Below, in pieces: positions 12,541 through 25,673 of a stretch of 32,000 nucleotides of DNA. The DNA is from Pseudomonadota bacterium. GTDB lineage: Bacteria > Bdellovibrionota_B > Oligoflexia > Silvanigrellales > Silvanigrellaceae. The translations under genes were made by a program, and so were the position numbers. Location of the stretch: positions 83,535-115,534 of the forward strand of contig JBDLRP010000029.1 of assembly GCA_039799905.1 (NCBI GenBank). The letters are read 5' to 3'. The notes beneath the pieces were generated by a model. That model was given only the letters and a program-made list of their open reading frames with translations. It did no database searches and was not told the DNA's origin. Each line of letters begins with the position of its first letter. Within the stretch, counting starts at the first letter, position 1.

Positions 12541-13539
12541 CTACAAATCCACAACCCGGCTTTCTTGCGGCCTCAGCGGGGCGTACATCGGAGTATCGGT
12601 AGAACTGCCATCCGACTTAAATACCCGCAGCAGGTAGTTCACAGGTGGCAAGTAGCGGAGATCATAGCCACCATTTTTAACATCACCAATCGCTTCGGCC
12701 CGGTCGCATGAACTTGTGGTGTCAAACACATTCGCAACATTCACCGCTCCAGCAGGCAAATGACGCTGAAATTGCCCCACAGGCTCAAACTGCTTTACGT
12801 TCAACTTGTTGTGACGTCTTGATCCTCCCAAAATGTATGCGCAAATTCGTGTCACAGAAGGGTCGCCGACAGAGCCGTAAATACGCGCGGCAATTTTGCT
12901 TGGAACGACGTGAATCATCGGTTTCATCGCATAACGTCCGTCGGGTAGTTTAATCACAGAACGACGCAAATCGACGTGGATGATAATTTCGTTTTCGGAA
13001 TCCTCCTCAACGTCAAACTCCTCAATAATCGTGAATTCTTTTTGACCAAACGGACCGACGGGAAAATCTAGCCTGACGCGTTCGCCGGTCGACTTGCTCA
13101 CACCCTCAACCTCACTGTCCTGCGTCATAAAGAGTCTGAGACCTTCATAGGTACCTGCGGGAAGATTGGCTGCGAACGGCAAGACCTGGGTTTTTCCATC
13201 CGAGAGGGACAGCAGATCGACCTCTGTTTCTTTGTTCAAATCAAAATAGTAAAGCGACGAATCGGCGCAGGAACTGCGCGGATCTCTCAAACAGCGTCCT
13301 GTTCCCCCAGGGGCAAACGCAACAGCACGCACTGTCACATACAGGTTCGAAAAATCATCCACGGGTGCATCAGCCAGAGCCACCGTTACATTGCCCGGCT
13401 TGATAGGTTTTGTGGTTTGGGGATTGCCAGCCTGAACACGACAGCCGGATTCGCCCTGCATAAGAAACAACAGCAGCAAGAAAGTATATATTCTGCTGCG
13501 AAAGGCCGCGCCACTCTGAATTCCCAGCCGTTTTTTCAC
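12541..13539 (-). CDS. DUF4382-domain lipoprotein
   Basis: N-terminus FLLLLFLMQGESGCRV (lipobox-like). VTVALADAPVDDFSNLYVTVRAVAFAP...GTYEGLRLFM is DUF4382-like. Confidence 0.8.
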   Translation of the reverse strand: MKKRLGIQSGAAFRSRIYTFLLLLFLMQGESGCRVQAGNPQTTKPIKPGNVTVALADAPVDDFSNLYVTVRAVAFAPGGTGRCLRDPRSSCADSSLYYFDLNKETEVDLLSLSDGKTQVLPFAANLPAGTYEGLRLFMTQDSEVEGVSKSTGERVRLDFPVGPFGQKEFTIIEEFDVEEDSENEIIIHVDLRRSVIKLPDGRYAMKPMIHVVPSKIAARIYGSVGDPSVTRICAYILGGSRRHNKLNVKQFEPVGQFQRHLPAGAVNVANVFDTTSSCDRAEAIGDVKNGGYDLRYLPPVNYLLRVFKSDGSSTDTPMYAPLRPQESRVVDL

Positions 13540-14414
13540 TTCTTACCCCCCGCCGCCTTCGTTAACGGAAAGATCTGCATGGAAATCTGGACCACCCGGC
13601 TGCCATCCTGAGTTTCAGCGGGAGGATGATCTTGATAAATCCGTTGTGAGAAGTCTTGAATCTTCTCTTTAAGTCCATCAAATTGTTCTTGAGAAAGCGT
13701 AAGCACCAGAGAGTTAATGTCCCTCTCTTCGGCCGGGCAGTCGACGACCGCAGCACGTGCCAAATCCAAAAGCGTCTGATGATAGCGAACCATCGCCACT
13801 CCGGCGACCTCGGGACCTGTCGCCACGTCATTCTGCAGCGCAACGTAACGCTTCTGACTACCATCCAGTTTCGCATAACCAATCCTGCACAGCAGCTCCA
13901 GTCCACTGTTGATTTCGTCGAGAGTAATCTTCGGACGAATCCGTTCCTGAAACCACTGCGGATCATCTGTGCTACCAGCAAAGCTCATCAACTCGAGCAA
14001 GACGGCATGTGACCAGTGACTAAAAAACTCTAACTGCCACTTATCGAGCTCGTTGACGACAAGACTTCCCTTCAACGCAACCAGTTTGCGGAAAACCGAT
14101 TCACGAATGACCGGATCGCGTTCGTAGCTGTGCTCCACCAGCAATTCGAAATACTGACGCTCACGTCCGACGAGCCCCAGGCCGGCAATCATTCTTTTGC
14201 AAGTCTTTATAGTCAGCGGACGGCGGCCACGAATGAGGGCATTCATCAGGTTGTTGCGGCCGAGGCCTGCATCGAAGGCAAAATCGAAGTATGTGTATTC
14301 GGGCTCGGCATTTTTAAGACCAACGAACAGCGCCTCCAAATACACCCGGTAATCGAGGTACTCCGATGGACGGACGACTTCGTTGCAAATCTTTTTGATT
14401 TTTGCCTTGTCCAC
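13536..14414 (-). CDS. TIGR02147-family protein
   Basis: EYLDYRVYLEALFVGLKNAEPEYTYFDFAFDAGLGRNNLMNALIRGRRPLTIKTCKRMIAGLGLVGRERQYFELLVEHSY, the TIGR02147 pattern common in Bdellovibrionota/Fibrobacter-type genomes. Confidence 0.8.
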   Translation of the reverse strand: MDKAKIKKICNEVVRPSEYLDYRVYLEALFVGLKNAEPEYTYFDFAFDAGLGRNNLMNALIRGRRPLTIKTCKRMIAGLGLVGRERQYFELLVEHSYERDPVIRESVFRKLVALKGSLVVNELDKWQLEFFSHWSHAVLLELMSFAGSTDDPQWFQERIRPKITLDEINSGLELLCRIGYAKLDGSQKRYVALQNDVATGPEVAGVAMVRYHQTLLDLARAAVVDCPAEERDINSLVLTLSQEQFDGLKEKIQDFSQRIYQDHPPAETQDGSRVVQISMQIFPLTKAAGGKK

Positions 14415-14552
14415 GCCCCTCGTTTCCTCCTGATAATCATATCGACATTTTGTCCATCTGATTAAACAAAAAGCACAAGGAACTTAAAAGGATAAGCTTT
14501 TTGACATGAAACCGCATGAGCGTGAATTGTCCCAGGACAATTCATCTCCTGA

Positions 14553-16232
14553 CTACAGTGGCCGCGCCCCCATATATGCTCCGAGACCAGCGGAAATCAC
14601 CGAACGCTCCAATTCACTCATTCTCACCCTGACAAACTGCTCCTCAAGCATACGAGCAATTTTAACCTTGGATGCAATGTCAGATGGCTTTGCCGAGGCA
14701 TCGGCAATGGGACTCAGCAACGCTCTGAGTTCTGCCTGCAAATCGGGAGGAAGCGAACGTGCCATGGAGGGTTTGGTGTTCTTCATATGCGTTGCCGCAT
14801 TGCGTAAACCGTTCATCGCCAGCTTGAATTTCTCCCAAGCAGCGCCTCCCTTGGTGTTCAACTGCGTGATGATCTCTTTTTTTGTCAGTGCGTTTTTTGG
14901 CGCAATCTTCAATAGATTACGCCAGGCCTGCGGATTGAGAACATTGCCGACAATCGACTTGCTGGTGCTCAATGCGCGCGCGGTATGAAAAATACCCTTG
15001 CGTGCTACGTTGTAAACGTCTGCCGCAATCATCGTATAGTAGGCCGTCTGCATCGCAACTTTCAAAGGACTCATCGGCAAATCCTCGATCCAGCGACTCA
15101 GCGGAATGCTCACCGCCGTGAAGACACCGCCCGCCGCAACGGCAACTGCAAACGCACTTGAGGCCATGACTGTCGCCGCACTTCCGGCCGAGGTAATGCC
15201 CGCAGCAACAGCCGCCGAAGAGGATGCACCTGCCGTAAAATATCCGACTGTTCCTGCTGTTGCAGTCCACATGGAACCCATTGCTGCTCCAAGCGCAGGA
15301 AGCGACACGACACTGATGGCAATTGCAGCACCCACTCCGACCACAACCTTGCGCGCGCCGTCGACTTGCTGCTTCAACCAGACTTTTGAGAACTCCTCCA
15401 AGTCCAACGGACCCTTTTCCTCATCGGGAATTCCCAGCATTTGTTTTGCTATGCTCTGCTCATCGGAAGCTTCTTTACCTTCAAAAAACCGATCAGAAGG
15501 AAGAGGCGCCGGAAAGGCAACCTCATTAGCCCACGAATCCGGGCGATGGGTCACCATGACTGTGCGCGCGAGAGGCTTACGCCTGATGAAAATTGCAGAC
15601 AACTCCTGCCAGTTGCCTGTCACACGAATCGCCTGATAGAGCTTGCCGTCCGCTCCGCGGACAAAAACAAATTCAAACTGCCGGGTGTCGCCAAGGATAG
15701 TTGAACCCCAATTGGGGTCGGTTGTGAAACCTGAGCAGTCTTTTGGGTTGCTTGTACCCGTCCCATTTTGCCCCAGCAATGTATTCGGATCGCCCAAGGC
15801 AGGGGTAATCCTGCAACCAAAAAAACGCAGAGTGCTTGCGTCGTTCCCGCCTTCAGCAGCAATTTTCATCTCATTGAGCAGCGCGCCGACTTCCGAAGAC
15901 GGGAGAAACTCCTCGAACTGGCTTTTCTTTTGCCGCACCTGAACTTTGACCTTGCCGTTGCGCGCCCCCTCCAAATTTACCGCAAGCATATGCATCGCAG
16001 AACAGTCGGCCTTCAACTGATCTTCCGTATCAGGATCCAGCAGGCCAGCTTCATCTTCCGGTGAGCAGGCCTCACTGATTTTTTTCATCGTCTCGGGATC
16101 CAGGTTGTCGCGATCTTCAATACCATACGAACGGCTGTTCGACTTCTGCTTGATGCATCCCGACAGAGTGCCTGCAAGCACTGCAGACGTTGCAACACAA
16201 ATGAGAGCTCTTCTCCATATATGAAAGCTCAT
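14553..16232 (-). CDS. Large lipoprotein of unknown function with Gly/Ala-rich hydrophobic segment
   Basis: 559 aa with lipobox AGTLSGC. Aa ~296-378 is a long G/A/S/V-rich hydrophobic stretch. Starts 46 bp after the FliF/FliG-like gene on the same strand. Confidence 0.78.
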   Translation of the reverse strand: MSFHIWRRALICVATSAVLAGTLSGCIKQKSNSRSYGIEDRDNLDPETMKKISEACSPEDEAGLLDPDTEDQLKADCSAMHMLAVNLEGARNGKVKVQVRQKKSQFEEFLPSSEVGALLNEMKIAAEGGNDASTLRFFGCRITPALGDPNTLLGQNGTGTSNPKDCSGFTTDPNWGSTILGDTRQFEFVFVRGADGKLYQAIRVTGNWQELSAIFIRRKPLARTVMVTHRPDSWANEVAFPAPLPSDRFFEGKEASDEQSIAKQMLGIPDEEKGPLDLEEFSKVWLKQQVDGARKVVVGVGAAIAISVVSLPALGAAMGSMWTATAGTVGYFTAGASSSAAVAAGITSAGSAATVMASSAFAVAVAAGGVFTAVSIPLSRWIEDLPMSPLKVAMQTAYYTMIAADVYNVARKGIFHTARALSTSKSIVGNVLNPQAWRNLLKIAPKNALTKKEIITQLNTKGGAAWEKFKLAMNGLRNAATHMKNTKPSMARSLPPDLQAELRALLSPIADASAKPSDIASKVKIARMLEEQFVRVRMSELERSVISAGLGAYMGARPL

Positions 16233-16278: not shown

Positions 16279-18825
16279 TCATGCGACAACGGGGCTTGAA
16301 ATTTTAAAGCGCCTACTCATGTCTTTGATCGCGGTATCAGCCTCACTTGGCGAAACACGCGGGTACATCACTTCATTTATCTCGCTCAGATTGATTAATC
16401 CGCTCGCAGCAAAAGACCTGATTTTCGACAACACCTGCATCTCTGCCAGACGGAATGACTCACTGTCCAACCCGCGGATGTTTGAAGCGCTCTCGTTCCA
16501 GTCGTCGGCAATCTCATCGGGAGCTTTGCGCAGAACAAGTTGTCTTATTTTGTCTCGTGTGCCGGCAAGGAATGTCACCATCACCTGAGGTTCGAGTGCC
16601 AGGAATATTTCCAAAAGAAGCCCGTCGCTCAAATAGGCAAGGGTTTCCACACTGACAAAGCGGCTTCTCACCTGACGAGCAAGTTCTGGATTGGTGCGAT
16701 CCAGATTCTCAAGCATTTCAAGCTGGGAATCGCGTTCGCTCCGTTCCACAAGATCGATGATTACATCAGCGCCGCCAAGCATTTCTCCTCCGGCTGCTCC
16801 CATTTTTTCAATCTTTCTCTTGAGTGCCATAGCTACATTGAACAGGTATTCGCGCGGCAGCGTTTCCTTGATGCAGAGCTCGCGCAAGAGTGCGGACTTT
16901 AGACTGCCTTCAAACAACTCAAACACAGCCCTGCGCTTGTCTGTCGGTAATTGAGTCAGCACAACAGCCTGCGACCGCGCACTCTCATCGCAAATCAAAT
17001 CATAAATCTGTCTTCCTGAGAACGATTTCAAGAAGTCAAATGTATCCTGAGCACGTTGAGTCATCTGCCTGATTTTTCCGGCAGTCAGCTTGAGTTTGAG
17101 ACTTCTCAAAACCGAAAGCTGTTCACTGTCGCCGACAATTGGAGCGTTCACATGAATGTATTCAGCGAGCAGGGCGACTTCTTTTTTTACGTCATCATCG
17201 CCCAGCAAATCAAAGACCATTATCTCGCCAAGCACGGATACACATTTAGCCGAGAATTCAATTCCATCTTCCCTAAGAATGCGCGAAAAGACATCTCGTG
17301 CAATCTTCGGCTGAGAAATAAACATCTGAGTCAGCTCATCGCGCAGTGATTGGATATTCATGCGCTGGGCAACTTCATCGTTGATTCCACCGGCAGGAAT
17401 CACAACGGCACGCGGGCGAATCGGAAGTGCTGCAGGAACAGTTGTTACCGGAGGGCTTGCCCCAAATGCGGACTGACCAATCTCTGTGGCAGCAGGTATG
17501 GCAACATCATCTCTGAAGTCCGCCTGCGGAGCGTGAACACCACGCCCCTCGGAAATGAGATGCTGTACCTGTTTGCTGCTCAAAACATAACGGAGCCCAA
17601 GCGCTCCAACCAACAGAAGAACGGCAAAGACGCCTGCAAACAAAAGGACCCTGTCTTTTGTCCAAAAGTCCTGAAGTCCGTTCTCGCTGAGCGTTTTTTG
17701 GGTATCCGACAACTCCTTGGTCTGTGAGGACTCCACAGACTGCGAAGAATTGCTCTTCTCCGAAAGTGACTCTCTGTTCCGCTCGCGCTCCTTCTCACTT
17801 TGCCTTTCCCGCTCACTCTCGCGGCTGATACTGTCGCGCTCGCGGATTACTTCTTTTGTATTTGCGAATTCGCGGAATATTCTCAGTGAACGGCCCAATC
17901 TTTCCAGACCCCAAGGATCGTTGCGCAATTCGTCGGAATCCTTTTGCAACTCGGAGGCAGCCTTTGGCATTGAGGTCAGTTTGACGTTCAAGATTCCCTG
18001 ACCATAGTTGTCGAGGTGATCACGCAAGAGATTTTCAATCTGCAGCCGGCGGTTGTCTTCCATCTCGGATGCAAGAGTCAGACTCGCAGTAACACCCGAA
18101 ACCACGAGCGCATGCTTGCTTTCACGAATGACAACAGCACGTCGCATCAGTGATGACTGGGCGTCCTCAAGAGGAATCCGCACCGTTTTAACCTCAAGCG
18201 TCTGCAATCTGCATTCAAGCGGACAAAAATCAGATAAAATTCTTTCAATGGAACTCTTCACTAAGCTGACTGCCTCCGATTTAGCCTCTGCCTCTGCCCG
18301 GATGACGTGAGGAGGGTCTGGAAGTGCGGCATTTGTGAATTCAATTTCTAACGGAACACCATAGCGTCGTGACGCTCGGAGCAGGACATCGCGTATCCGC
18401 TCGATATTGCTCTTTCCCAGTCTGTTATCAATCAAAACCTCGGCAACCGCACTGCTCACCAAAAAAGTTCTTGGTACGACTGTTGCGCTTTCGAAACCAA
18501 GTGAAGCCGAATTTGTGTCAAAGAGCTCGCGGCTTTCAACATCCACACCCAAAATCGTACAACCATCCGGACAATACTTCGTCACGTCCGACTGGAGTTT
18601 TGTTCGAATGCGCTGAATTGTTTCTTCGTCGAATCTGAGCTTTTCAGGGTCGGCGGGGGCCATGGATTGGAACGCCTGAATTTGCTGCGATGCAAAAGCG
18701 GTTTGATAGAGCGAAAGTTGCGTCATGAGGGCAACAAGCGAGGCACAAAAAAAGCTAGCCACGGAGAGTGTAGAACTCCTCCCCATCACTTTCGCCTTTT
18801 TATATGCAACTCGACAAATCATCAC
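16279..18825 (-). CDS. FliF-like/FliG-like fusion protein (candidate non-flagellar rotor)
   Basis: 848 aa. Signal peptide, then two tandem domains (aa ~65-172 and ~187-290), each with a Cys pair (CPDGC, CPLEC) followed by a FliF ring-building-like segment. Then an R/E/S-rich linker, one TM (aa ~393-415), a FliF-tail-like segment (LRDELTQMFISQPKIARDVFSRILRED), FliG-middle-like (FDFLKSFSGRQIYDLICDESARSQAVVLTQLP) and FliG-C-like (GGADVIIDLVERSERDSQLEMLENLDRTNPELARQVRSRFVSVETLAYL...FRLAEMQVLSKIRSFAASGLI). Confidence 0.8.
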   Translation of the reverse strand: MMICRVAYKKAKVMGRSSTLSVASFFCASLVALMTQLSLYQTAFASQQIQAFQSMAPADPEKLRFDEETIQRIRTKLQSDVTKYCPDGCTILGVDVESRELFDTNSASLGFESATVVPRTFLVSSAVAEVLIDNRLGKSNIERIRDVLLRASRRYGVPLEIEFTNAALPDPPHVIRAEAEAKSEAVSLVKSSIERILSDFCPLECRLQTLEVKTVRIPLEDAQSSLMRRAVVIRESKHALVVSGVTASLTLASEMEDNRRLQIENLLRDHLDNYGQGILNVKLTSMPKAASELQKDSDELRNDPWGLERLGRSLRIFREFANTKEVIRERDSISRESERERQSEKERERNRESLSEKSNSSQSVESSQTKELSDTQKTLSENGLQDFWTKDRVLLFAGVFAVLLLVGALGLRYVLSSKQVQHLISEGRGVHAPQADFRDDVAIPAATEIGQSAFGASPPVTTVPAALPIRPRAVVIPAGGINDEVAQRMNIQSLRDELTQMFISQPKIARDVFSRILREDGIEFSAKCVSVLGEIMVFDLLGDDDVKKEVALLAEYIHVNAPIVGDSEQLSVLRSLKLKLTAGKIRQMTQRAQDTFDFLKSFSGRQIYDLICDESARSQAVVLTQLPTDKRRAVFELFEGSLKSALLRELCIKETLPREYLFNVAMALKRKIEKMGAAGGEMLGGADVIIDLVERSERDSQLEMLENLDRTNPELARQVRSRFVSVETLAYLSDGLLLEIFLALEPQVMVTFLAGTRDKIRQLVLRKAPDEIADDWNESASNIRGLDSESFRLAEMQVLSKIRSFAASGLINLSEINEVMYPRVSPSEADTAIKDMSRRFKISSPVVA

Positions 18826-19478
18826 TGATAAACCCTTATAACAACCCTTCTGTTTGCCGCGCGTGCCTGTTCAAGTGCATCGCCCGCTTTTCCACTGATG
18901 GAAATTTTGGGCCTCGAAGAACCAAATCCTGCAACGCTCATCCTTTCCTGCGGGACCTTGAGTTCACGCATTTTGTTCAGCAGTGCGACTCCGCGCGCGC
19001 TGCTGAGCGCCCAATTCACCTCATCATTCCCGACATCGTCAGTATGTCCCTCAAAACTGAGGAAATATTTGCGATCTGTCTTTTGGAGAATCTGCAAAAT
19101 TGGCATTGCTTCCTTTGCCGCAAAGTCACTTAACTCATCGCTTCCCTGACGAAACAGAACACCACCTAAAAACTCAACCATCAGACCTGACATTCCCAGC
19201 TCGGTGACGACCGAGCTCTGCAAGCCCCTGTTGGCAATCTCGAAATCAATCTGTTTTTTCAATTCATCAAGACTGTCGGTCCGCTGGCGGGTCATCACCT
19301 GTGATACGACATCAAATTTCTGCGCGCTGACCTGCGACATCGACAGCATCAACACGAAGAGTGCGAGCATATTTGTTGTCAGGTCGGCATATGAGGTCAG
19401 CCACAATGAGTCTTTGTTTTTCTTTTTGCTGCGCTTTGAAATTCCGGCGACAGAATTGAAGAATGATTCCTGAGTCAT
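18822..19478 (-). CDS. motB: MotB-family stator protein with OmpA-like peptidoglycan-binding domain
   Basis: LWLTSYADLTTNMLALFVLMLSMS with Asp at residue 32, and FEGHTDDVGNDEVNWALSSARGVALLNKM...VAGFG...ANRRVVIRV. Confidence 0.92.
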   Translation of the reverse strand: MTQESFFNSVAGISKRSKKKNKDSLWLTSYADLTTNMLALFVLMLSMSQVSAQKFDVVSQVMTRQRTDSLDELKKQIDFEIANRGLQSSVVTELGMSGLMVEFLGGVLFRQGSDELSDFAAKEAMPILQILQKTDRKYFLSFEGHTDDVGNDEVNWALSSARGVALLNKMRELKVPQERMSVAGFGSSRPKISISGKAGDALEQARAANRRVVIRVYQ

Positions 19479-19484
19479 TTTTCG

Positions 19485-20315
19485 CTACCCTCCCTGAGAC
19501 GCGCGGGTGCGCGGCGGGAGATCGCGATTGCCTTCACTCTGGGAGAGACCGGCCGCAGTGCGACCCTGTGTTTGTTCCTGCGAGTAGGTGCTCAAAACAT
19601 CTCTCAGGTGTGCTTGGGATTTCTTTTCCTTGAGCAGGAGGACTCCCTCAAGAATCATCAAATCAAGCTGCAAAGTCTTTTCCGCATAAATCGCGATTTT
19701 TTCAGAGATGGGTGTGTACACAACGGTACCGAGAATTATTCCATAGAGGGTTGTCAGCAGGGCTATCGCCATAGATGGGCCGAGTTTGGCTGGCTCCGAC
19801 ATGTGTGAGAGCATTTGGACAAGTCCAACGATCGTTCCGAGAAGTCCCATGCCGGGACACAGTTTTCCCAAACTTTCAAAAAGACTCACCGCATGGGAAA
19901 ACTGAGTTTGCTTGGTATTTATTTTTGCAGTCAGGTTGTGCCTGATTTCGTCGGCTGTAAAGCTCGATAGAATGAGCGTCACGCCATCCCTGAAGAGCTG
20001 ATTGCTGATTTGCGGTTTGTATTTTGCGAGAATTCCTATTCCCTCTGTCCGCACTGCGTAACTGAGCGTCGACAGCTGATTTGAAATTTGGTTCATTTCT
20101 TTTTTTTGATTCAGGAACGCAAGACTCAACAGTGTGCGAAGCCCTGAAAAGAAATCGATGAAACTGTGCGACATAAGCATTACGGCAATCGGCGCGACTC
20201 CGAGCAGGACGGCCGAGGCCGGCTCCCAGAAGCCTTCGAAATTTTCGCCGCCATGAAAAATCAGATACCAAAGTGACCACGCAAAGGCTGTAAGGCCGAC
20301 AAGAATGCTGATCAT
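19485..20315 (-). CDS. motA: MotA-family stator protein
   Basis: 276 aa, four predicted TM segments, LGKLCPGMGLLGTIVGLVQML and LGPSMAIALLTTLYGIILGTVVYTPIS. Confidence 0.92.
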   Translation of the reverse strand: MISILVGLTAFAWSLWYLIFHGGENFEGFWEPASAVLLGVAPIAVMLMSHSFIDFFSGLRTLLSLAFLNQKKEMNQISNQLSTLSYAVRTEGIGILAKYKPQISNQLFRDGVTLILSSFTADEIRHNLTAKINTKQTQFSHAVSLFESLGKLCPGMGLLGTIVGLVQMLSHMSEPAKLGPSMAIALLTTLYGIILGTVVYTPISEKIAIYAEKTLQLDLMILEGVLLLKEKKSQAHLRDVLSTYSQEQTQGRTAAGLSQSEGNRDLPPRTRASQGG

Positions 20316-21088
20316 GGCACCCTCCCGTCGACTGCCTTTGTGCTCTGCGCAGGTTGATCGATCCTCTTTTGCCGGAGACCTTCGCGGCTTGAAATAACTC
20401 TTCGCAGTTGCTCGATCTGCGCGAGCAGCCGAGGATTCGGCTCGAGGTCAAACGCCTTTTCATACGCGGAAAGCGACAAATCTGACTGACTCAGTCTGAG
20501 ATGAAGAGTCCCCTTCATGGTCCAAAGCAATGCTGATTTGGAGAAATGCAGCAGCAGTTCGTTTGTCTCAACAAGAGCATCCTCGTAACGTTTTGATGAA
20601 AACAGCTGACGTATTTTTTTTGTTGATTCAGTGAAGCTCGGGCTGAGCGGTCTTCCGTCCTCCTCGCTGACTCCCAAAACCCGATCAAAATCTCCAAGCC
20701 TTTTCTCGAATTCACCGGCACCGCTCACGCCTGCGATTTCGGCGTCCGTTCTTTGCAAGCGAGCTCTCTCGCGGGATTGTGCAATGGGATCGCCTGTCAC
20801 ATCTCCCGGCTCAAGTCCCATCACAGATGCGGGTAGTTTGACCTCAGTAAGATCCGAACCTCGTTCTCCGGTGAGCACCTGCTCGACAGTTTCCCGTTGA
20901 GCACGTTCGCTTGCTTCCCGCGAGGCAGGAGGGGGTGCAATTCGAAATTCCGTTGCTGGATTTTTGTTGTCCTGCAACACGCGCTGCTGTTGCGCTGCCG
21001 GTGTTTCCGCAGGCGTCGACGTACACGAGAAATGTGCGACTCCCACAAACAGGAGGCACAGTTTAAAACTGGAGGCCGAAGGCAACAT
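20312..21088 (-). CDS. TPR-containing lipoprotein
   Basis: From the Met at 21088: MLPSASSFKLCLLFVGVAHFSCTST (lipobox). C-terminus has TPR-like YEDALVETNELLLHFSKSALLWTMKGTLHLRLSQSDLSLSAYEKAFDLEPNPRLLAQIEQL. ATGA overlap with motA. Confidence 0.82.
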   Translation of the reverse strand: MLPSASSFKLCLLFVGVAHFSCTSTPAETPAAQQQRVLQDNKNPATEFRIAPPPASREASERAQRETVEQVLTGERGSDLTEVKLPASVMGLEPGDVTGDPIAQSRERARLQRTDAEIAGVSGAGEFEKRLGDFDRVLGVSEEDGRPLSPSFTESTKKIRQLFSSKRYEDALVETNELLLHFSKSALLWTMKGTLHLRLSQSDLSLSAYEKAFDLEPNPRLLAQIEQLRRVISSREGLRQKRIDQPAQSTKAVDGRVP

Positions 21089-22271
21089 CAGCAGCCAATC
21101 CTCCAGGCGTTGTGTATTTATATCGATTGCGAACACTGATGGTCGTCGGAAGGCTGTATCCAACACCGGCGTCAATTAGAAATCGCTGACCCAAACGCAT
21201 TGTTGCGCCGCCTCTCAACGAAAAGCAGGCATATCCTTTGGAGACAATCGTTCCAGCACCCAATTCCAGACCGGTGACGGTGCCATCAACGCTGGAGGAA
21301 TCCTTCGAAAAGAAGTGTCCATAAATCGCGTAAAGTCCCAAAGCTCGCGTGAAGGGGAGAATGATTTCCGTGTTGCTGCCTTCTTTGAATTCAGCACTGG
21401 AAGCAGGGTCGCCGACAATCTCCGGATAGTCGGAAATCAGCACAGATGGCGCTAAAATCCCGCTCAGTCTTGTGCCAACTTCATCCCGCCCAGCATTGAA
21501 TTTTTCAGAAAACCGCAGATTGATTCCAAGCATGTTCGCGCTGTCTTTGACATTCGGAACAAGATGCCAACCGATTGTCGTGGCAAAGAGATATTTCGAT
21601 TTTTTGGCTGTTTCGACTTCAATCTGCTGCTTGGTTTCGGAGTCGCGCTGCTCCATCTTCTGCCTGTAGATATTTTCAGTGTTGTAAAGCTTGCTCCAGA
21701 GCAACTCTTTGGACTTGGAATCGAACACATGGAATCCCAAAATCATGCTTGTTTCTTGATAAATCAGCGTCATATCAACCCAAGCTTCAACCCCGAGCTG
21801 ACTTGCGATTGCGTCCAGTTCCTGCGGATTGTTTATGGGCGTGGTCATTACCAGCCGTCCGTTTTCAACGACCGTTCGACGCACCCGACAATTGGTGCAC
21901 TGCAAAACCTTGGTGCCGCTGTGCTTGCGGAATGCATCCGAGATCTGTGTTTCAAGATAGCTCTCATATGTGCGCGGTATGCCCTCGCCCAAGGCAACAC
22001 GACGGATCGCCACGTTTCGCAGAGAATTTAGTGCTTTGGCCCGTAGATCAAATGAAAACTCGTTCACAAGATCTTGCAGAACTTCATTGAAACTCTTCAC
22101 CTGCTCGCCTTGACCTTGCGTCATCAAAGCGGCTTGTGACTTTGCGGGTGGCGATTCGACGGCAAATGCATACGTCGTCGGTGCGAGCACGACAGTGAGC
22201 GCAAACGCGTGAGCGAGCGCCCGAAAAACGAGCTGTGCTCTCCTTATTTTCTGCCGAAAAATGTCAGGCAT
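21063..22271 (-). CDS. Outer-membrane beta-barrel-like protein with FlgO/CsgG-like N-terminal domain
   Basis: Signal-peptide-like N-terminus. NVAIRRVALGEGIPRTYESYLETQISDAFRKHSGTKVLQC...LDAIASQLGVEAWVDMTLIYQETSMILGFHVFDSKSKELLWSKLY, then alternating beta segments ending in a terminal Phe (VAFGLQF). Confidence 0.7.
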   Translation of the reverse strand: MPDIFRQKIRRAQLVFRALAHAFALTVVLAPTTYAFAVESPPAKSQAALMTQGQGEQVKSFNEVLQDLVNEFSFDLRAKALNSLRNVAIRRVALGEGIPRTYESYLETQISDAFRKHSGTKVLQCTNCRVRRTVVENGRLVMTTPINNPQELDAIASQLGVEAWVDMTLIYQETSMILGFHVFDSKSKELLWSKLYNTENIYRQKMEQRDSETKQQIEVETAKKSKYLFATTIGWHLVPNVKDSANMLGINLRFSEKFNAGRDEVGTRLSGILAPSVLISDYPEIVGDPASSAEFKEGSNTEIILPFTRALGLYAIYGHFFSKDSSSVDGTVTGLELGAGTIVSKGYACFSLRGGATMRLGQRFLIDAGVGYSLPTTISVRNRYKYTTPGGLAADVAFGLQF

Positions 22272-22375: not shown

Positions 22376-23017
22376 TCAGAGCGAGTAGGTCAGCTTCGCA
22401 AGAGACTCTTTGCCGGTTGCGACAACGAGTTCCCAAGATTTGCGCGCTTCGTCGCCCTGAAAATCTTCGTCGTAAGTTTCGAGCAAGTCCTGAATTCCCT
22501 CTGCATCTTCAAGAAGGCTCAGGGCGTTGACAGCCGAGCGGAAATAACGCGCAGCTTCGTTCGGGTGACGCTTCACTTTGAGGCTGAGACGTCCCATTTC
22601 TTCATACCACTGCGCCTTCTCTTCGGGAGTCGCAACTTCGCCCGTCTCGCCCAGCATATATATGTAGGTGTTCAACGCACGAGTGTTGTCTTTGGAAGCC
22701 ATCAGCTCGGAAATCTTGGGCAGGAGAGTTTGAATCGTCTTGCGGGCCTTAGCTTGTTCTTTGCGTTTGTCCTCGAGGCTCTCGGATGAGTGCTTTTCGA
22801 GAATTCTCTCACAATGGGCGCGCAGTAGACGCAGGTCTTCGGGAAGAACCTGATCGCGCTCTGTTTCGAGTGTGGGGTTGATTTGGCGAAACAGAGACAA
22901 GAGTTCCGCCGGAGAAACGTGAAGGTAGCCGGCGAGAATCTGAATTGCCCACGGGCGATCGTCGGGCCAAATCCGCTCTGCACGTTCCATCTGCCGAATC
23001 AACTCATGCATATCCAT
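22376..23017 (-). CDS. Uncharacterised helical-repeat (TPR-like) protein
   Basis: 213 aa, helix-rich: LNTYIYMLGETGEVATPEEKAQWYEEMGRLSLKVKRHPNEAARYFRSAVNALSLLED. No firm family. Confidence 0.72.
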   Translation of the reverse strand: MDMHELIRQMERAERIWPDDRPWAIQILAGYLHVSPAELLSLFRQINPTLETERDQVLPEDLRLLRAHCERILEKHSSESLEDKRKEQAKARKTIQTLLPKISELMASKDNTRALNTYIYMLGETGEVATPEEKAQWYEEMGRLSLKVKRHPNEAARYFRSAVNALSLLEDAEGIQDLLETYDEDFQGDEARKSWELVVATGKESLAKLTYSL

Positions 23018-24362: not shown

Positions 24363-24380
24363 ACTCATCGAGTGATGAGT
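24363..24380. repeat. Second inverted repeat next to the terminator
   Basis: ACTCATC-gagt-GATGAGT: 7-bp perfect stem, 4-nt loop. Confidence 0.7.
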
Positions 24381-24387
24381 GGCTGAC

Positions 24388-24801
24388 TTAGCCTGCCTTG
24401 TGCAGGGGTGTGACCTTAGCCACAACCTTGCGAGCTTTGCGAGCTGCAGGCTTCTTGGCTTTCTTTGCCTTCTTCTTAGCAGCTGGCTTCTTAGCGGCAG
24501 CCTTCTTAGCTGTAGCCTTCTTAGCCTTCTTCTTGGCAGCTGGCTTCTTGGTAACAGCCTTCTTGGCGGTTGCCTTCTTAGCCTTGCGCTTAGCTGGCTT
24601 CTTAGCAGCAGCCTTCTTAGCGGTAGCTTTCTTGGCAGTAGCCTTCTTAGCCTTCTTCTTCGCAGCTGGCTTCTTAGCCTTTGCAGCAACTTTCTTCTTC
24701 GCCTTGCCGCCTACTTTTTTCTTAGCTGCGCGGACTGTCTTCTTCTTCTTTGCACGCTTCGGTTTTGCGTGCGATACTTCAGCTTTAGTTTCAACTGTCA
24801 T
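24388..24801 (-). CDS. Histone H1-like Lys/Ala-rich protein
   Basis: 137 aa with repeated KKPAAKKKAKKATAKKAAA-type units and a basic N-terminal region. Confidence 0.88.
   Translation of the reverse strand: MTVETKAEVSHAKPKRAKKKKTVRAAKKKVGGKAKKKVAAKAKKPAAKKKAKKATAKKATAKKAAAKKPAKRKAKKATAKKAVTKKPAAKKKAKKATAKKAAAKKPAAKKKAKKAKKPAARKARKVVAKVTPLHKAG
24430..24720. repeat. Degenerate tandem coding repeat (~57-bp superunit, ~4 copies)
   Basis: Recurring AKKPAAKKKAKKATAKKA(T/A/V) peptide units; + strand DNA shows recurrent ccttcttagc(c/g)...cttcttagcagc strings. Confidence 0.75.
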
Positions 24802-25118
24802 TTAGACGTTCCCTTCTTCAGACTGCGACGCTCGGAGACAAAGCTTGTGTCCCCACGCCTGAATTGTGAAACCAATTCACTCGACCGCAACGTCTCCCGA
24901 CGTGACCAGCGACAGCGTCTTCCCGACGCAGAGCACCGCACATTCATGCGATACCAATTTTTCGTCATGTCTCAGTATAACTTGAGTCGAAGTTCAGCTT
25001 TTTTTAGCACGTCACTTTTTTGGAGCTTCTGGTGAACTTTTTGACACAACACACAACTTTTTCACCTCTCATCGCACAACTCGGATCGCAGAGTTTTGAG
25101 CTCCAGGCGCGAACAAAT

Positions 25119-25673
25119 ATGAATTCCGGAAACTCCGTCGACGGTTCTTTTCCAACTCTGCTCGCGATCGTTCTGGTCACTTTCGTTCTCGTCCTTTTCC
25201 TTATGGCGACCCTTTGGCCGAGAGAAAAGTCCGACTCCATACATTCACGGCAGAGACAATTCGGACGGGTCGACGGACTGTTCTTCAAAATCCAGACAGC
25301 GCTTCTCGACAGCGAAGAATCCAGCAGATATCTCGCAGGACAACTCTCGAGTCCCGCTCTTTTGCAAGGGATTCTCCTCATGAAAAGTCAGTCCCTGACA
25401 CTGGTGTCTTTGAGCGTCGGCGGCTGTGCCTTTGTCTCGCCCACGCCACTGAAGAAAGGTTCAGTGCTTCTTCTCCAACTCGGCTCACTGCCCGACTTTC
25501 CCAAAGAAAATCTCATTGTTGCATGCAAAGTTGTGTGGTCGCGGCACGACAAGGGAAAGCACGGCGGAGTGGAGAGTGCCGGTTGTAAATTTGTTTTTCC
25601 GCAGGGAGCCGCAGGTCCCGACGAGCCCCTCAAAAACTACATCACATTCCTGATGGATGAACCGGTGAGCTAG
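25119..25673 (+). CDS. PilZ-domain-like membrane protein
   Basis: TM near the N-terminus (TLLAIVLVTFVLVLFLMATLWP), then LTLVSLSVGGCAFVSPTPLKKGSVLLLQLG...NLIVACKVVWSR...GVESAGCKFVF. This matches the PilZ D/NxSxxG pattern only in degenerate form. Start set at the internal Met. Confidence 0.65.
   Translation: MNSGNSVDGSFPTLLAIVLVTFVLVLFLMATLWPREKSDSIHSRQRQFGRVDGLFFKIQTALLDSEESSRYLAGQLSSPALLQGILLMKSQSLTLVSLSVGGCAFVSPTPLKKGSVLLLQLGSLPDFPKENLIVACKVVWSRHDKGKHGGVESAGCKFVFPQGAAGPDEPLKNYITFLMDEPVS

Follow-up and report, generated by a model that had tools for sequence, protein, structure and literature searches.

A natural FliF/FliG-like fusion protein beside a divergent flagellar-type stator in Oligoflexia: candidate rotor of a small ion-driven machine

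A natural fusion of the MS-ring protein FliF to the switch protein FliG is known from the Chlamydiaceae (the CT719 type). It is a protein of ∼330 amino acids with two ring-building motifs (RBMs) and, of FliG, the FliG_M-like region only (Bergeron 2016, PeerJ, PMC4768692). The chlamydial protein is believed to communicate with the injectisome, and MotAB is not among the flagellar genes listed for these organisms (PMC4768692). FliF-FliG fusions that were engineered or arose spontaneously build rings and have served structural work (8z4d; PMC11481574). Here, we describe a FliF/FliG-like fusion protein of 848 amino acids from Oligoflexia. Its gene lies in a 32,000-nucleotide (nt) stretch of a Silvanigrellaceae genome (assembly GCA_039799905.1, contig JBDLRP010000029.1, positions 83,535 to 115,534; hereafter, the window), next to genes for a MotA/MotB-like pair. 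We put at roughly one in two the probability that a small ion-driven machine, probably independent of the flagellum, has this protein as its rotor and the MotA/MotB-like pair as its dedicated stator.

The Oligoflexia protein resembles the Chlamydiaceae fusion in architecture, as judged against the published description (PMC4768692). Both are single chains with a signal or transmembrane segment, two RBM-like periplasmic domains, a transmembrane helix, and a FliG-like cytosolic domain, and both are found outside a complete flagellar gene set. Unlike the chlamydial protein, the Oligoflexia protein is 848 amino acids long, combines FliG_M and FliG_C with an N-like domain, has invariant CxxxC pairs, and is accompanied by a putatively dedicated stator. 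An initial sequence-only reading of this DNA had proposed a natural covalent rotor fusion. The single chain was borne out, but the idea is not new, because the Chlamydiaceae fusion is known (PMC4768692) and engineered FliF-FliG fusions form rings. We found no published description of the Oligoflexia family in the searchable literature. As far as that literature goes, what is new is a full set of FliG-like M and C domains plus a domain in the N position, the invariant Cys pairs, and a family that is Oligoflexia-wide, together with an apparently dedicated, charge-matched stator of flagellar type and the loss of the switch-binding motif.

The fused architecture is conserved well beyond this one contig. 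A word-indexed search of NCBI, JGI, ENA, and Logan assemblies returned 29 full-length homologs (43 to 100% identity) that align from end to end. An exhaustive HMMER search with the periplasmic profile alone (residues 59 to 331) returned 102 cluster representatives; 81 had E values below 1e-10, and lengths were mostly 720 to 990 amino acids. We sampled 10 of the representatives, and each has FliG_M and FliG_C in its C-terminal part. Because the 29 homologs, which come from independent assemblies, and the ∼100 representatives share the architecture of this uninterrupted open reading frame, the gene is not a frameshift or an assembly artifact, and the continuity of the reading frame is supported. 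Since FliG_M/C was present in 10/10 sampled matches to a periplasmic profile, the fused architecture is, as far as these sequences tell, the ancestral state of a family and no accident. Hydropathy marks two hydrophobic segments in the protein, at residues 17 to 40 and 392 to 414. Together with the model helices, it indicates that these segments lie on either side of the periplasmic region and that the C-terminus is cytoplasmic, as in FliF. This agrees with the layout that had been proposed initially, in which the periplasmic part lies between an N-terminal hydrophobic segment and a transmembrane helix. The helix, first drawn at 17581-17649, maps to ∼17584-17652, and the motifs that were quoted lie where they had been placed. 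The N-terminal hydrophobic segment is weakly conserved in the alignment of close homologs.

The cytoplasmic half matches FliG in both sequence and predicted structure, as the initial reading had it. Pfam assigns FliG_M (PF14841) to residues 605 to 677, with 32.4 bits versus a gathering cutoff of 25, and FliG_C (PF01706) to residues 706 to 813, with 31.6 bits versus 23.3. The family profile matched residues 117 to 327 of Aquifex aeolicus FliG (3hjl) at E 1e-15 in the PDB and, in a four-sequence search, residues 108 to 321 of E. coli FliG at E 1e-17. In Foldseek, full-length FliG chains (3hjl, 8wiw, 8wo5, 9n49, and 8umx) align with the full model over 315 to 333 columns; the alignment implies that the conserved helices at residues 483 to 591, which follow a disordered linker (residues 427 to 481 in the AlphaFold model), occupy the place of FliG_N. 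Pfam gave no FliG_N match in the protein, HHalign of residues 483 to 600 with E. coli FliG was not significant, and a PDB profile search with the same residues gave chance matches only. The segment LRDELTQMFISQPKIARDVFSRILRED, initially taken for a FliF C-terminal tail, sits within this helical domain. HHalign of residues 483 to 600 with residues 494 to 530 of E. coli FliF gave E 0.52, and we rejected the resemblance as a demonstrated one; an analogy of position between the domain and the FliF tail is possible, and the first two helices of the domain may mimic that tail.

The protein departs from flagellar FliG in several respects. The NCBIfam fliG equivalog (TIGR00207) scores 42.9 bits, far under its cutoff of 226.7. 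Of the FliM-binding EHPQR motif, the Glu (E614) alone is retained, with H, P, and Q replaced by S, A or P, and R, and R160 replaced by E649. The mixed-charge torque helix of FliG is not found either. None of the three basic torque residues of E. coli FliG is kept (K264 has become A754, R281 E771, and R297 D787), while D288 corresponds to E778, which is still acidic, and D289 corresponds to S779. At the R281 position, 85 of 88 full-length family members have Glu or Asp, and the torque-helix segment has a mean net charge of −4, compared with +1 in E. coli.

The periplasmic half is an internal duplication, as had been suggested. Residues 56 to 178 align with residues 179 to 300 at a probability of 97% (E 1e-10; profile-profile, 25 sequences), and with the 88 full-length members, the HHalign probability rises to 99.4% (E 2e-21) over 113 columns. 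In the AlphaFold models, both repeats have the alpha-beta-beta-alpha-beta order that is the topology of RBMs, and they are followed by a conserved stretch and then a long helix. The Cys pair noted initially in each copy proved general, with the four residues (C85, C89, C201, and C205) conserved in 87 to 88 of the 88 full-length members. They are the sole periplasmic Cys of the protein. In both repeats, the CxxxC stands at the end of helix 1, directly before strand 1, and one disulfide per periplasmic domain is plausible. A DsbA/thioredoxin-like gene lies directly upstream of the distant family members in loci L015 (8837-9841) and L020 (8903-9886), which lends weak support to disulfides in the invariant pairs.

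How far this half can be called FliF-like depends on the level of comparison. The periplasmic part modeled by itself has a predicted local distance difference test score (pLDDT) of 80, and a Foldseek search of the PDB with this model is headed by FliF MS-ring chains (8zds_A, E 3e-6; 8t8p_A, E 4e-6). Further FliF chains follow (8z5v_A and 8z4g_1, E about 2.6e-4). FliF outranks OsmC-like and ribosomal alpha/beta proteins, and the injectisome proteins PrgK and PrgH rank below it, at about 4e-3 to 1e-2; the full-length model matched the MS-ring chain 6scn_A at E 5e-4. Sequence kinship of the periplasmic part to FliF/SctJ was rejected. Pfam YscJ_FliF and YscJ_FliF_C had no match in the protein at E ≤ 0.1, and the Pfam scan found nothing in the N-terminal half. 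The periplasmic profile had no PDB sequence match at E ≤ 10, and its HHalign comparison with E. coli FliF was not significant (E 0.099; probability, 0.6%). The sequence-only label of FliF-like is thus upheld for the fold and falls for the sequence. The models have two RBMs versus the three of FliF, with no RBM3/beta-collar; helices follow instead.

Three side observations concern the less regular parts of the chain. Between the conserved periplasmic helix, which ends at residue 331, and the transmembrane helix runs a Glu/Arg/Ser-rich linker of variable length that reaches residue ∼385 and includes a low-complexity stretch (alignment columns ∼495 to 540). Its length differs greatly among homologs, and P0010, P0012, and P0013 show large expansions of ER repeats. 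Several distant members (P0029 to P0034) have long Asn/Thr-rich N-terminal extensions. At the other end, the C-terminal tip shows strong conservation; V847 and A848 do not vary in the close family, and at least 70% of the 88 members retain the final Ala.

In Silvanigrellales, the fusion gene belongs to a tight same-strand cluster of six genes, encoding, in order, a 402-amino-acid secreted protein, a TPR protein, the MotA-like and MotB-like proteins, the fusion protein, and a 559-amino-acid lipoprotein. Overlaps of 4 nt join TPR to motA and motB to the fusion gene, and gaps of 6 nt and 46 nt separate motA from motB and the fusion gene from the 559-amino-acid gene, respectively. By the overlap of their reading frames, the MotB-like gene and the fusion gene are translationally coupled. 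The MotB-like protein matches MotB_plug (E 1.6e-15) and OmpA (E 5e-13) in Pfam, and the best PDB match of the MotA-like profile is Vibrio PomA (8bri; E 6e-42). In NCBIfam, the A subunit scores best against PomA, MotP, and MotA, and the B subunit against MotD and MotB. Every stator score is under its equivalog cutoff (PomA, 143 bits versus 341; MotD, 85 versus 283), and TolQ reaches just 24 bits. These scores place the pair, as a divergent stator, in the flagellar branch and not among the Tol/Exb-like systems. Like PomAB/MotAB, which are 5:2 ion-driven rotary motors, it combines the MotA_ExbB fold and its long cytoplasmic loop with a plug, a channel Asp, and an OmpA-like anchor. Unlike them, it is encoded at a locus that is neither flagellar nor chemotactic, and its rotor-contact patch has changed. 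The MotA-like R89 is invariant and aligns with PomA R88 (R88/R90 equivalent), while the acidic E96/E97 of PomA (E98 of MotA) are replaced by Y99 and an invariant K100, with K/R98 adjoining. The rotor appears to have turned acidic and the stator basic, a complementary charge swap on both partners, and we read these changes as the mark of a private rotor-stator pair. In loci L007, L009, and L011, an in-frame MotA-MotB fusion was considered and rejected, as a stop codon splits the two genes.

These features bear on whether anything turns at all. RBMs are known mostly from rings that do not rotate, i.e., SctJ, SctD, and SpoIIIAG (PMC4768692), and PrgK, PrgH, and MxiJ are among our Foldseek matches. 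The 848-amino-acid protein could accordingly be a static, SctJ-like ring scaffold with a FliG-like adaptor for a secretion or envelope complex, with MotAB energizing something else in the manner of Tol/Ton. The secreted and lipoprotein partners encoded in the cluster would suit such a scaffold, as would the six contexts of distant family members in which MotAB is not adjacent. We nevertheless regard it as unlikely, given a complete FliG_C torque domain in 10/10 sampled members, a stator with a plug that is flagellar and not Tol/Exb in type, charge changes in MotA and FliG_C that complement each other, and the translational coupling of the MotB and fusion genes.

The wider comparison is with other machines that use ion flow for work without a filament. 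Like AglRQS of gliding, GldLM, TolQR, ExbBD, and ZorAB, the cluster encodes a predicted ion-driven stator-like unit together with envelope partners. Unlike those, its stator is of the flagellar branch, with a plug and PomA-like sequence. We know of no FliG-like rotor ring in AglRQS, GldLM, TolQR, ExbBD, or ZorAB.

To place the cluster among genomes, we scanned species-representative genomes and obtained 14 loci. All 14 are from freshwater metagenome-assembled genomes (MAGs), labeled Silvanigrella, Silvanigrellaceae, Silvanigrellales, Oligoflexia, or unclassified “Proteobacteria.” Wherever the contig is long enough, the order 402-amino-acid protein/TPR/MotA/MotB/fusion is kept, down to 43 to 45% identity; the 559-amino-acid gene is missing from the two most divergent loci. 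The family as a whole, with its ∼100 cluster representatives, is so far confined to Oligoflexia, and one distant member comes from an Oligoflexales MAG. DsbA-like and cNMP-binding genes recur as neighbors in the contexts of distant members. In locus L018, a TPR lipoprotein gene homologous to the TPR protein of the window (E 8e-11) lies directly upstream of the family member, and two flagellin genes are near it. Source annotations call the family members “FliG” or hypothetical protein.

In another account, the protein is simply the flagellar rotor of the organism, a true MS-ring/C-ring protein in which FliF and FliG are naturally fused and for which the adjacent MotAB is the flagellar stator. 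The likeness to FliF and FliG, and to the engineered fusions (Vibrio 8z4d/8z4g; Salmonella), takes in the order of transmembrane segment, RBMs, transmembrane segment, and cytoplasmic part, the FliG M and C domains, best fold matches of the two halves to FliF and FliG, and a flagellar-type stator next door. In favor of this account, the stator is of the PomA/MotA type, FliF-FliG fusions do form rings, and cultured Silvanigrellaceae are motile (PMC7386786). However, two RBMs lacking an RBM3/beta-collar have nothing with which to hold a rod, the EHPQR motif is lost, and the fliG score falls far under its cutoff. In the 32-kb window, our search turned up no genes for an export gate, rod, hook, or switch. 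FliF builds a ∼34-mer ring that contains the type III export gate, and of the genes linked to this ring, fliPQR, flhAB, and fliE, the window has none either.

Genomes of relatives also speak to this question. Locus L019, from an Oligoflexales MAG, encodes a canonical 331-amino-acid FliG (N, M, and C) 1.5 kb from the fusion gene. This fliG (13911-14906, minus strand) stands alone, an unusual placement; no further flagellar genes were called across the 22 kb of the locus. Silvanigrellales relatives have been described with complete flagellar gene sets (PMC12321486; PMC7386786), and papers on the genomes of Silvanigrella, Fluviispira, and Spirobacillus mention flagellar genes (PMC7386786; PMC12321486). 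A search for canonical FliG returned many sequences at 75 to 84% identity, the named ones from Oligoflexales, “Proteobacteria,” and “Deltaproteobacteria” MAGs. None of its matches, few of which bore organism names, was labeled Silvanigrellales, so the coexistence of fusion and canonical FliG rests on L019 and the published genome descriptions. In contrast to the 75 to 84% of canonical FliG, distant members of the fusion family share 21 to 42% identity with one another. The L019 FliG, the L018 flagellins, the published gene sets, and this difference in conservation together lead us to regard the fusion as probably a paralogous, separate system. Judged from the genomes of relatives, it is probably not “the” flagellar rotor, and we consider that account of the protein very improbable.

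A further alternative is regulatory. PilZ proteins such as YcgR brake the flagellum by way of MotA and FliG. The 848-amino-acid protein might be a regulator or decoy, a membrane-tethered FliG-like platform that sequesters stator units or signaling proteins and so tunes flagellar torque under cyclic-nucleotide or cyclic di-GMP control. Two kinds of neighbor would fit. A cNMP-binding gene of roughly 170 amino acids abuts or overlaps the 3′ end of the fusion gene of distant members (L015, 12196-12714; L018, 12160-12675), and the window has a conserved PilZ-domain gene at a distance of 4.7 kb. A stator that has diverged from its flagellar equivalogs as far as this one (143 bits versus 341) fits a private partner better, and a decoy would have no need of large, conserved, Cys-bearing periplasmic domains and envelope partners. 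To us, a regulatory decoy therefore has little to recommend it. As to the PilZ gene itself, it overlaps an upstream 218-amino-acid gene of no known family. The pair runs divergently from the cluster at ∼4.7 kb from motA, and every long Silvanigrellales locus keeps it in synteny; a regulatory link to the cluster is conceivable.

We return to the reading that we prefer, that of a rotor with its own stator. A role outside the flagellum is favored because the window has no other flagellar genes, the fliG score is just 43 bits, the EHPQR motif is lost, and L019 and L018 have a canonical FliG and flagellins, respectively, near the family member. In this machine, the two periplasmic RBM domains would oligomerize into a membrane-anchored ring like those of FliF and SctJ, with each domain probably stabilized by its CxxxC disulfide. 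The ring would place the covalently attached FliG-like N/M/C ring beneath the inner membrane. Stator units would be anchored to peptidoglycan by the OmpA-like domain, ions would pass via the conserved Asp of MotB, and the basic cytoplasmic patch of MotA would push on the acidic torque helix of FliG_C. No switch complex would be expected to bind, because the FliM-binding motif is lost. The work may pass to envelope partners encoded in the cluster, namely, the TPR protein, the 402-amino-acid secreted protein, and the 559-amino-acid lipoprotein, and candidate outputs are surface movement, envelope remodeling, and transport. In its boldest form, this would be an autonomous minimal motor that dispenses with type III export, rod, hook, and switch and consists of one MS-ring/torque-ring protein and a coevolved stator, with an output in the periplasm or outer membrane. 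We offer this form tentatively and hold it to be rather doubtful.

Several points weigh against the rotor-stator reading. What the sequences show is the domain content, the duplication, a conserved architecture, tight operon packing, and a flagellar-type stator; the ring, its rotation, the disulfides, and the coupling to neighboring gene products are inferred. The FliF likeness of the periplasmic part holds at the level of the predicted fold only, without a sequence signal. The template-modeling (TM) scores of the periplasmic model to FliF are low (0.23 to 0.28); since the two domains are oriented differently, the match is evidence of local fold only. The full-chain AlphaFold2 model, built with the family alignment, has a mean pLDDT of 68, with the repeats and FliG_C in the 80s, and its predicted TM score of 0.28 makes the relative arrangement of the domains unreliable. 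The charge-swap argument hinges on an alignment across an indel-prone MotA loop. MotAB was adjacent to the fusion gene in 0/6 contexts of distant members examined (Oligoflexales and other lineages), and a dedicated stator is therefore indicated for Silvanigrellales only. Finally, synteny among the 14 loci runs far past the cluster, so that the shared gene order is by itself a weak argument for functional linkage.

The remaining genes of the cluster and its flanks are listed with the other features in Table 1. The 559-, 402-, and 213-amino-acid neighbor proteins have no sequence relatives in Pfam, NCBIfam, or the PDB; the N-terminus and C-terminal Phe of the 402-amino-acid protein suggest an outer-membrane-like protein. 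Scans for promoters and terminators did no better than on shuffled sequence. Just upstream of the cluster, the cytoplasmic 213-amino-acid protein has 98% identity across loci that share 55 to 80% identity in their other proteins. Its gene shows ∼95 to 110 synonymous codon differences versus 3 to 5 nonsynonymous ones, and this excess points to extreme purifying selection. Beyond the 559-amino-acid gene lies a gene for a DUF4423 protein, syntenic in most loci.

Table 1. Features of the fusion gene, its cluster, and flanking genes (positions are those of the window; residues are those of the 848-amino-acid protein)
Feature	Position	Strand	Remarks
DUF4423 protein gene	13536-14414	−	follows the 559-amino-acid lipoprotein gene
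559-amino-acid predicted lipoprotein	14553-16232	−	LSGC lipobox; Gly/Ala-rich hydrophobic segments
848-amino-acid FliF/FliG-like fusion gene	16279-18825	−	no internal stop
Fusion gene start	GTG 18825 or ATG 18822	−	overlaps stop codon of motB-like gene
Residues 841-848, C-terminal tip	16279-16302	−	ISSPVVA
Residues 706-813, FliG_C torque domain	16387-16710	−	all-acidic torque helix (D770, E771, D774, D775, E778, D787)
Residues 605-677, FliG_M	16795-17013	−	Pfam; PDB profile search
Residues 483-591, conserved helical cytoplasmic domain in FliG_N position	17053-17379	−	model and Foldseek alignment
Residues 392-414, predicted transmembrane helix	17584-17652	−	hydropathy up to 2.8; AlphaFold model
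Residues 332-360, low-complexity Glu/Arg/Ser stretch	17746-17832	−	
Residues 300-331, periplasmic stretch of highest conservation	17833-17928	−	predicted helical; DPWGLxxLGxxLxxFREFANTKExIxE
Residues 172-287, second, homologous alpha-beta-beta-alpha-beta domain	17965-18312	−	invariant C201-x3-C205
Residues 59-170, first alpha-beta-beta-alpha-beta domain (ring-building-motif-like)	18316-18651	−	invariant C85-x3-C89
Residues 17-45, N-terminal hydrophobic segment	18691-18777	−	hydropathy; signal peptide (AFA|SQ-like site) or first transmembrane anchor
MotB-like stator B subunit	18822-19478	−	plug, channel Asp (SYADLTT), OmpA-like peptidoglycan-binding domain
MotA/PomA-like stator A subunit	19485-20315	−	basic residues at the PomA/MotA acidic rotor-contact patch
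TPR-containing protein, probably periplasmic	20312-21175	−	true start probably inside the open reading frame
402-amino-acid secreted protein	21063-22271	−	signal-peptide-like N-terminus, C-terminal Phe; syntenic in all Silvanigrellales loci
213-amino-acid cytoplasmic protein	22376-23017	−	no known family
218-amino-acid gene and PilZ gene, pair (plus strand)	24379-25673		
PilZ-domain protein	25020-25673	+	overlaps the 218-amino-acid gene

If the boldest form of the rotor-stator reading is right, a FliF/FliG/MotAB module can exist and work by itself. Such a module could be a repurposed derivative of the flagellum or the surviving relative of a preflagellar state. One open question of flagellar evolution is by what route rotor-stator pair and secretion apparatus were brought together. 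No simpler relative of the flagellar motor core would be known than a natural module made up only of a FliF-like ring, a complete FliG-like torque domain, and a MotAB-type stator of its own. It would be a small system, of one rotor gene and two stator genes, in which to study how torque is generated, how rotor and stator match in charge, and what symmetry the ring has, without roughly 30 other flagellar proteins. For the Oligoflexia themselves, the annotation of family members as FliG, together with flagellar scores for the stator, could inflate the flagellar capacity that is inferred from their genomes.

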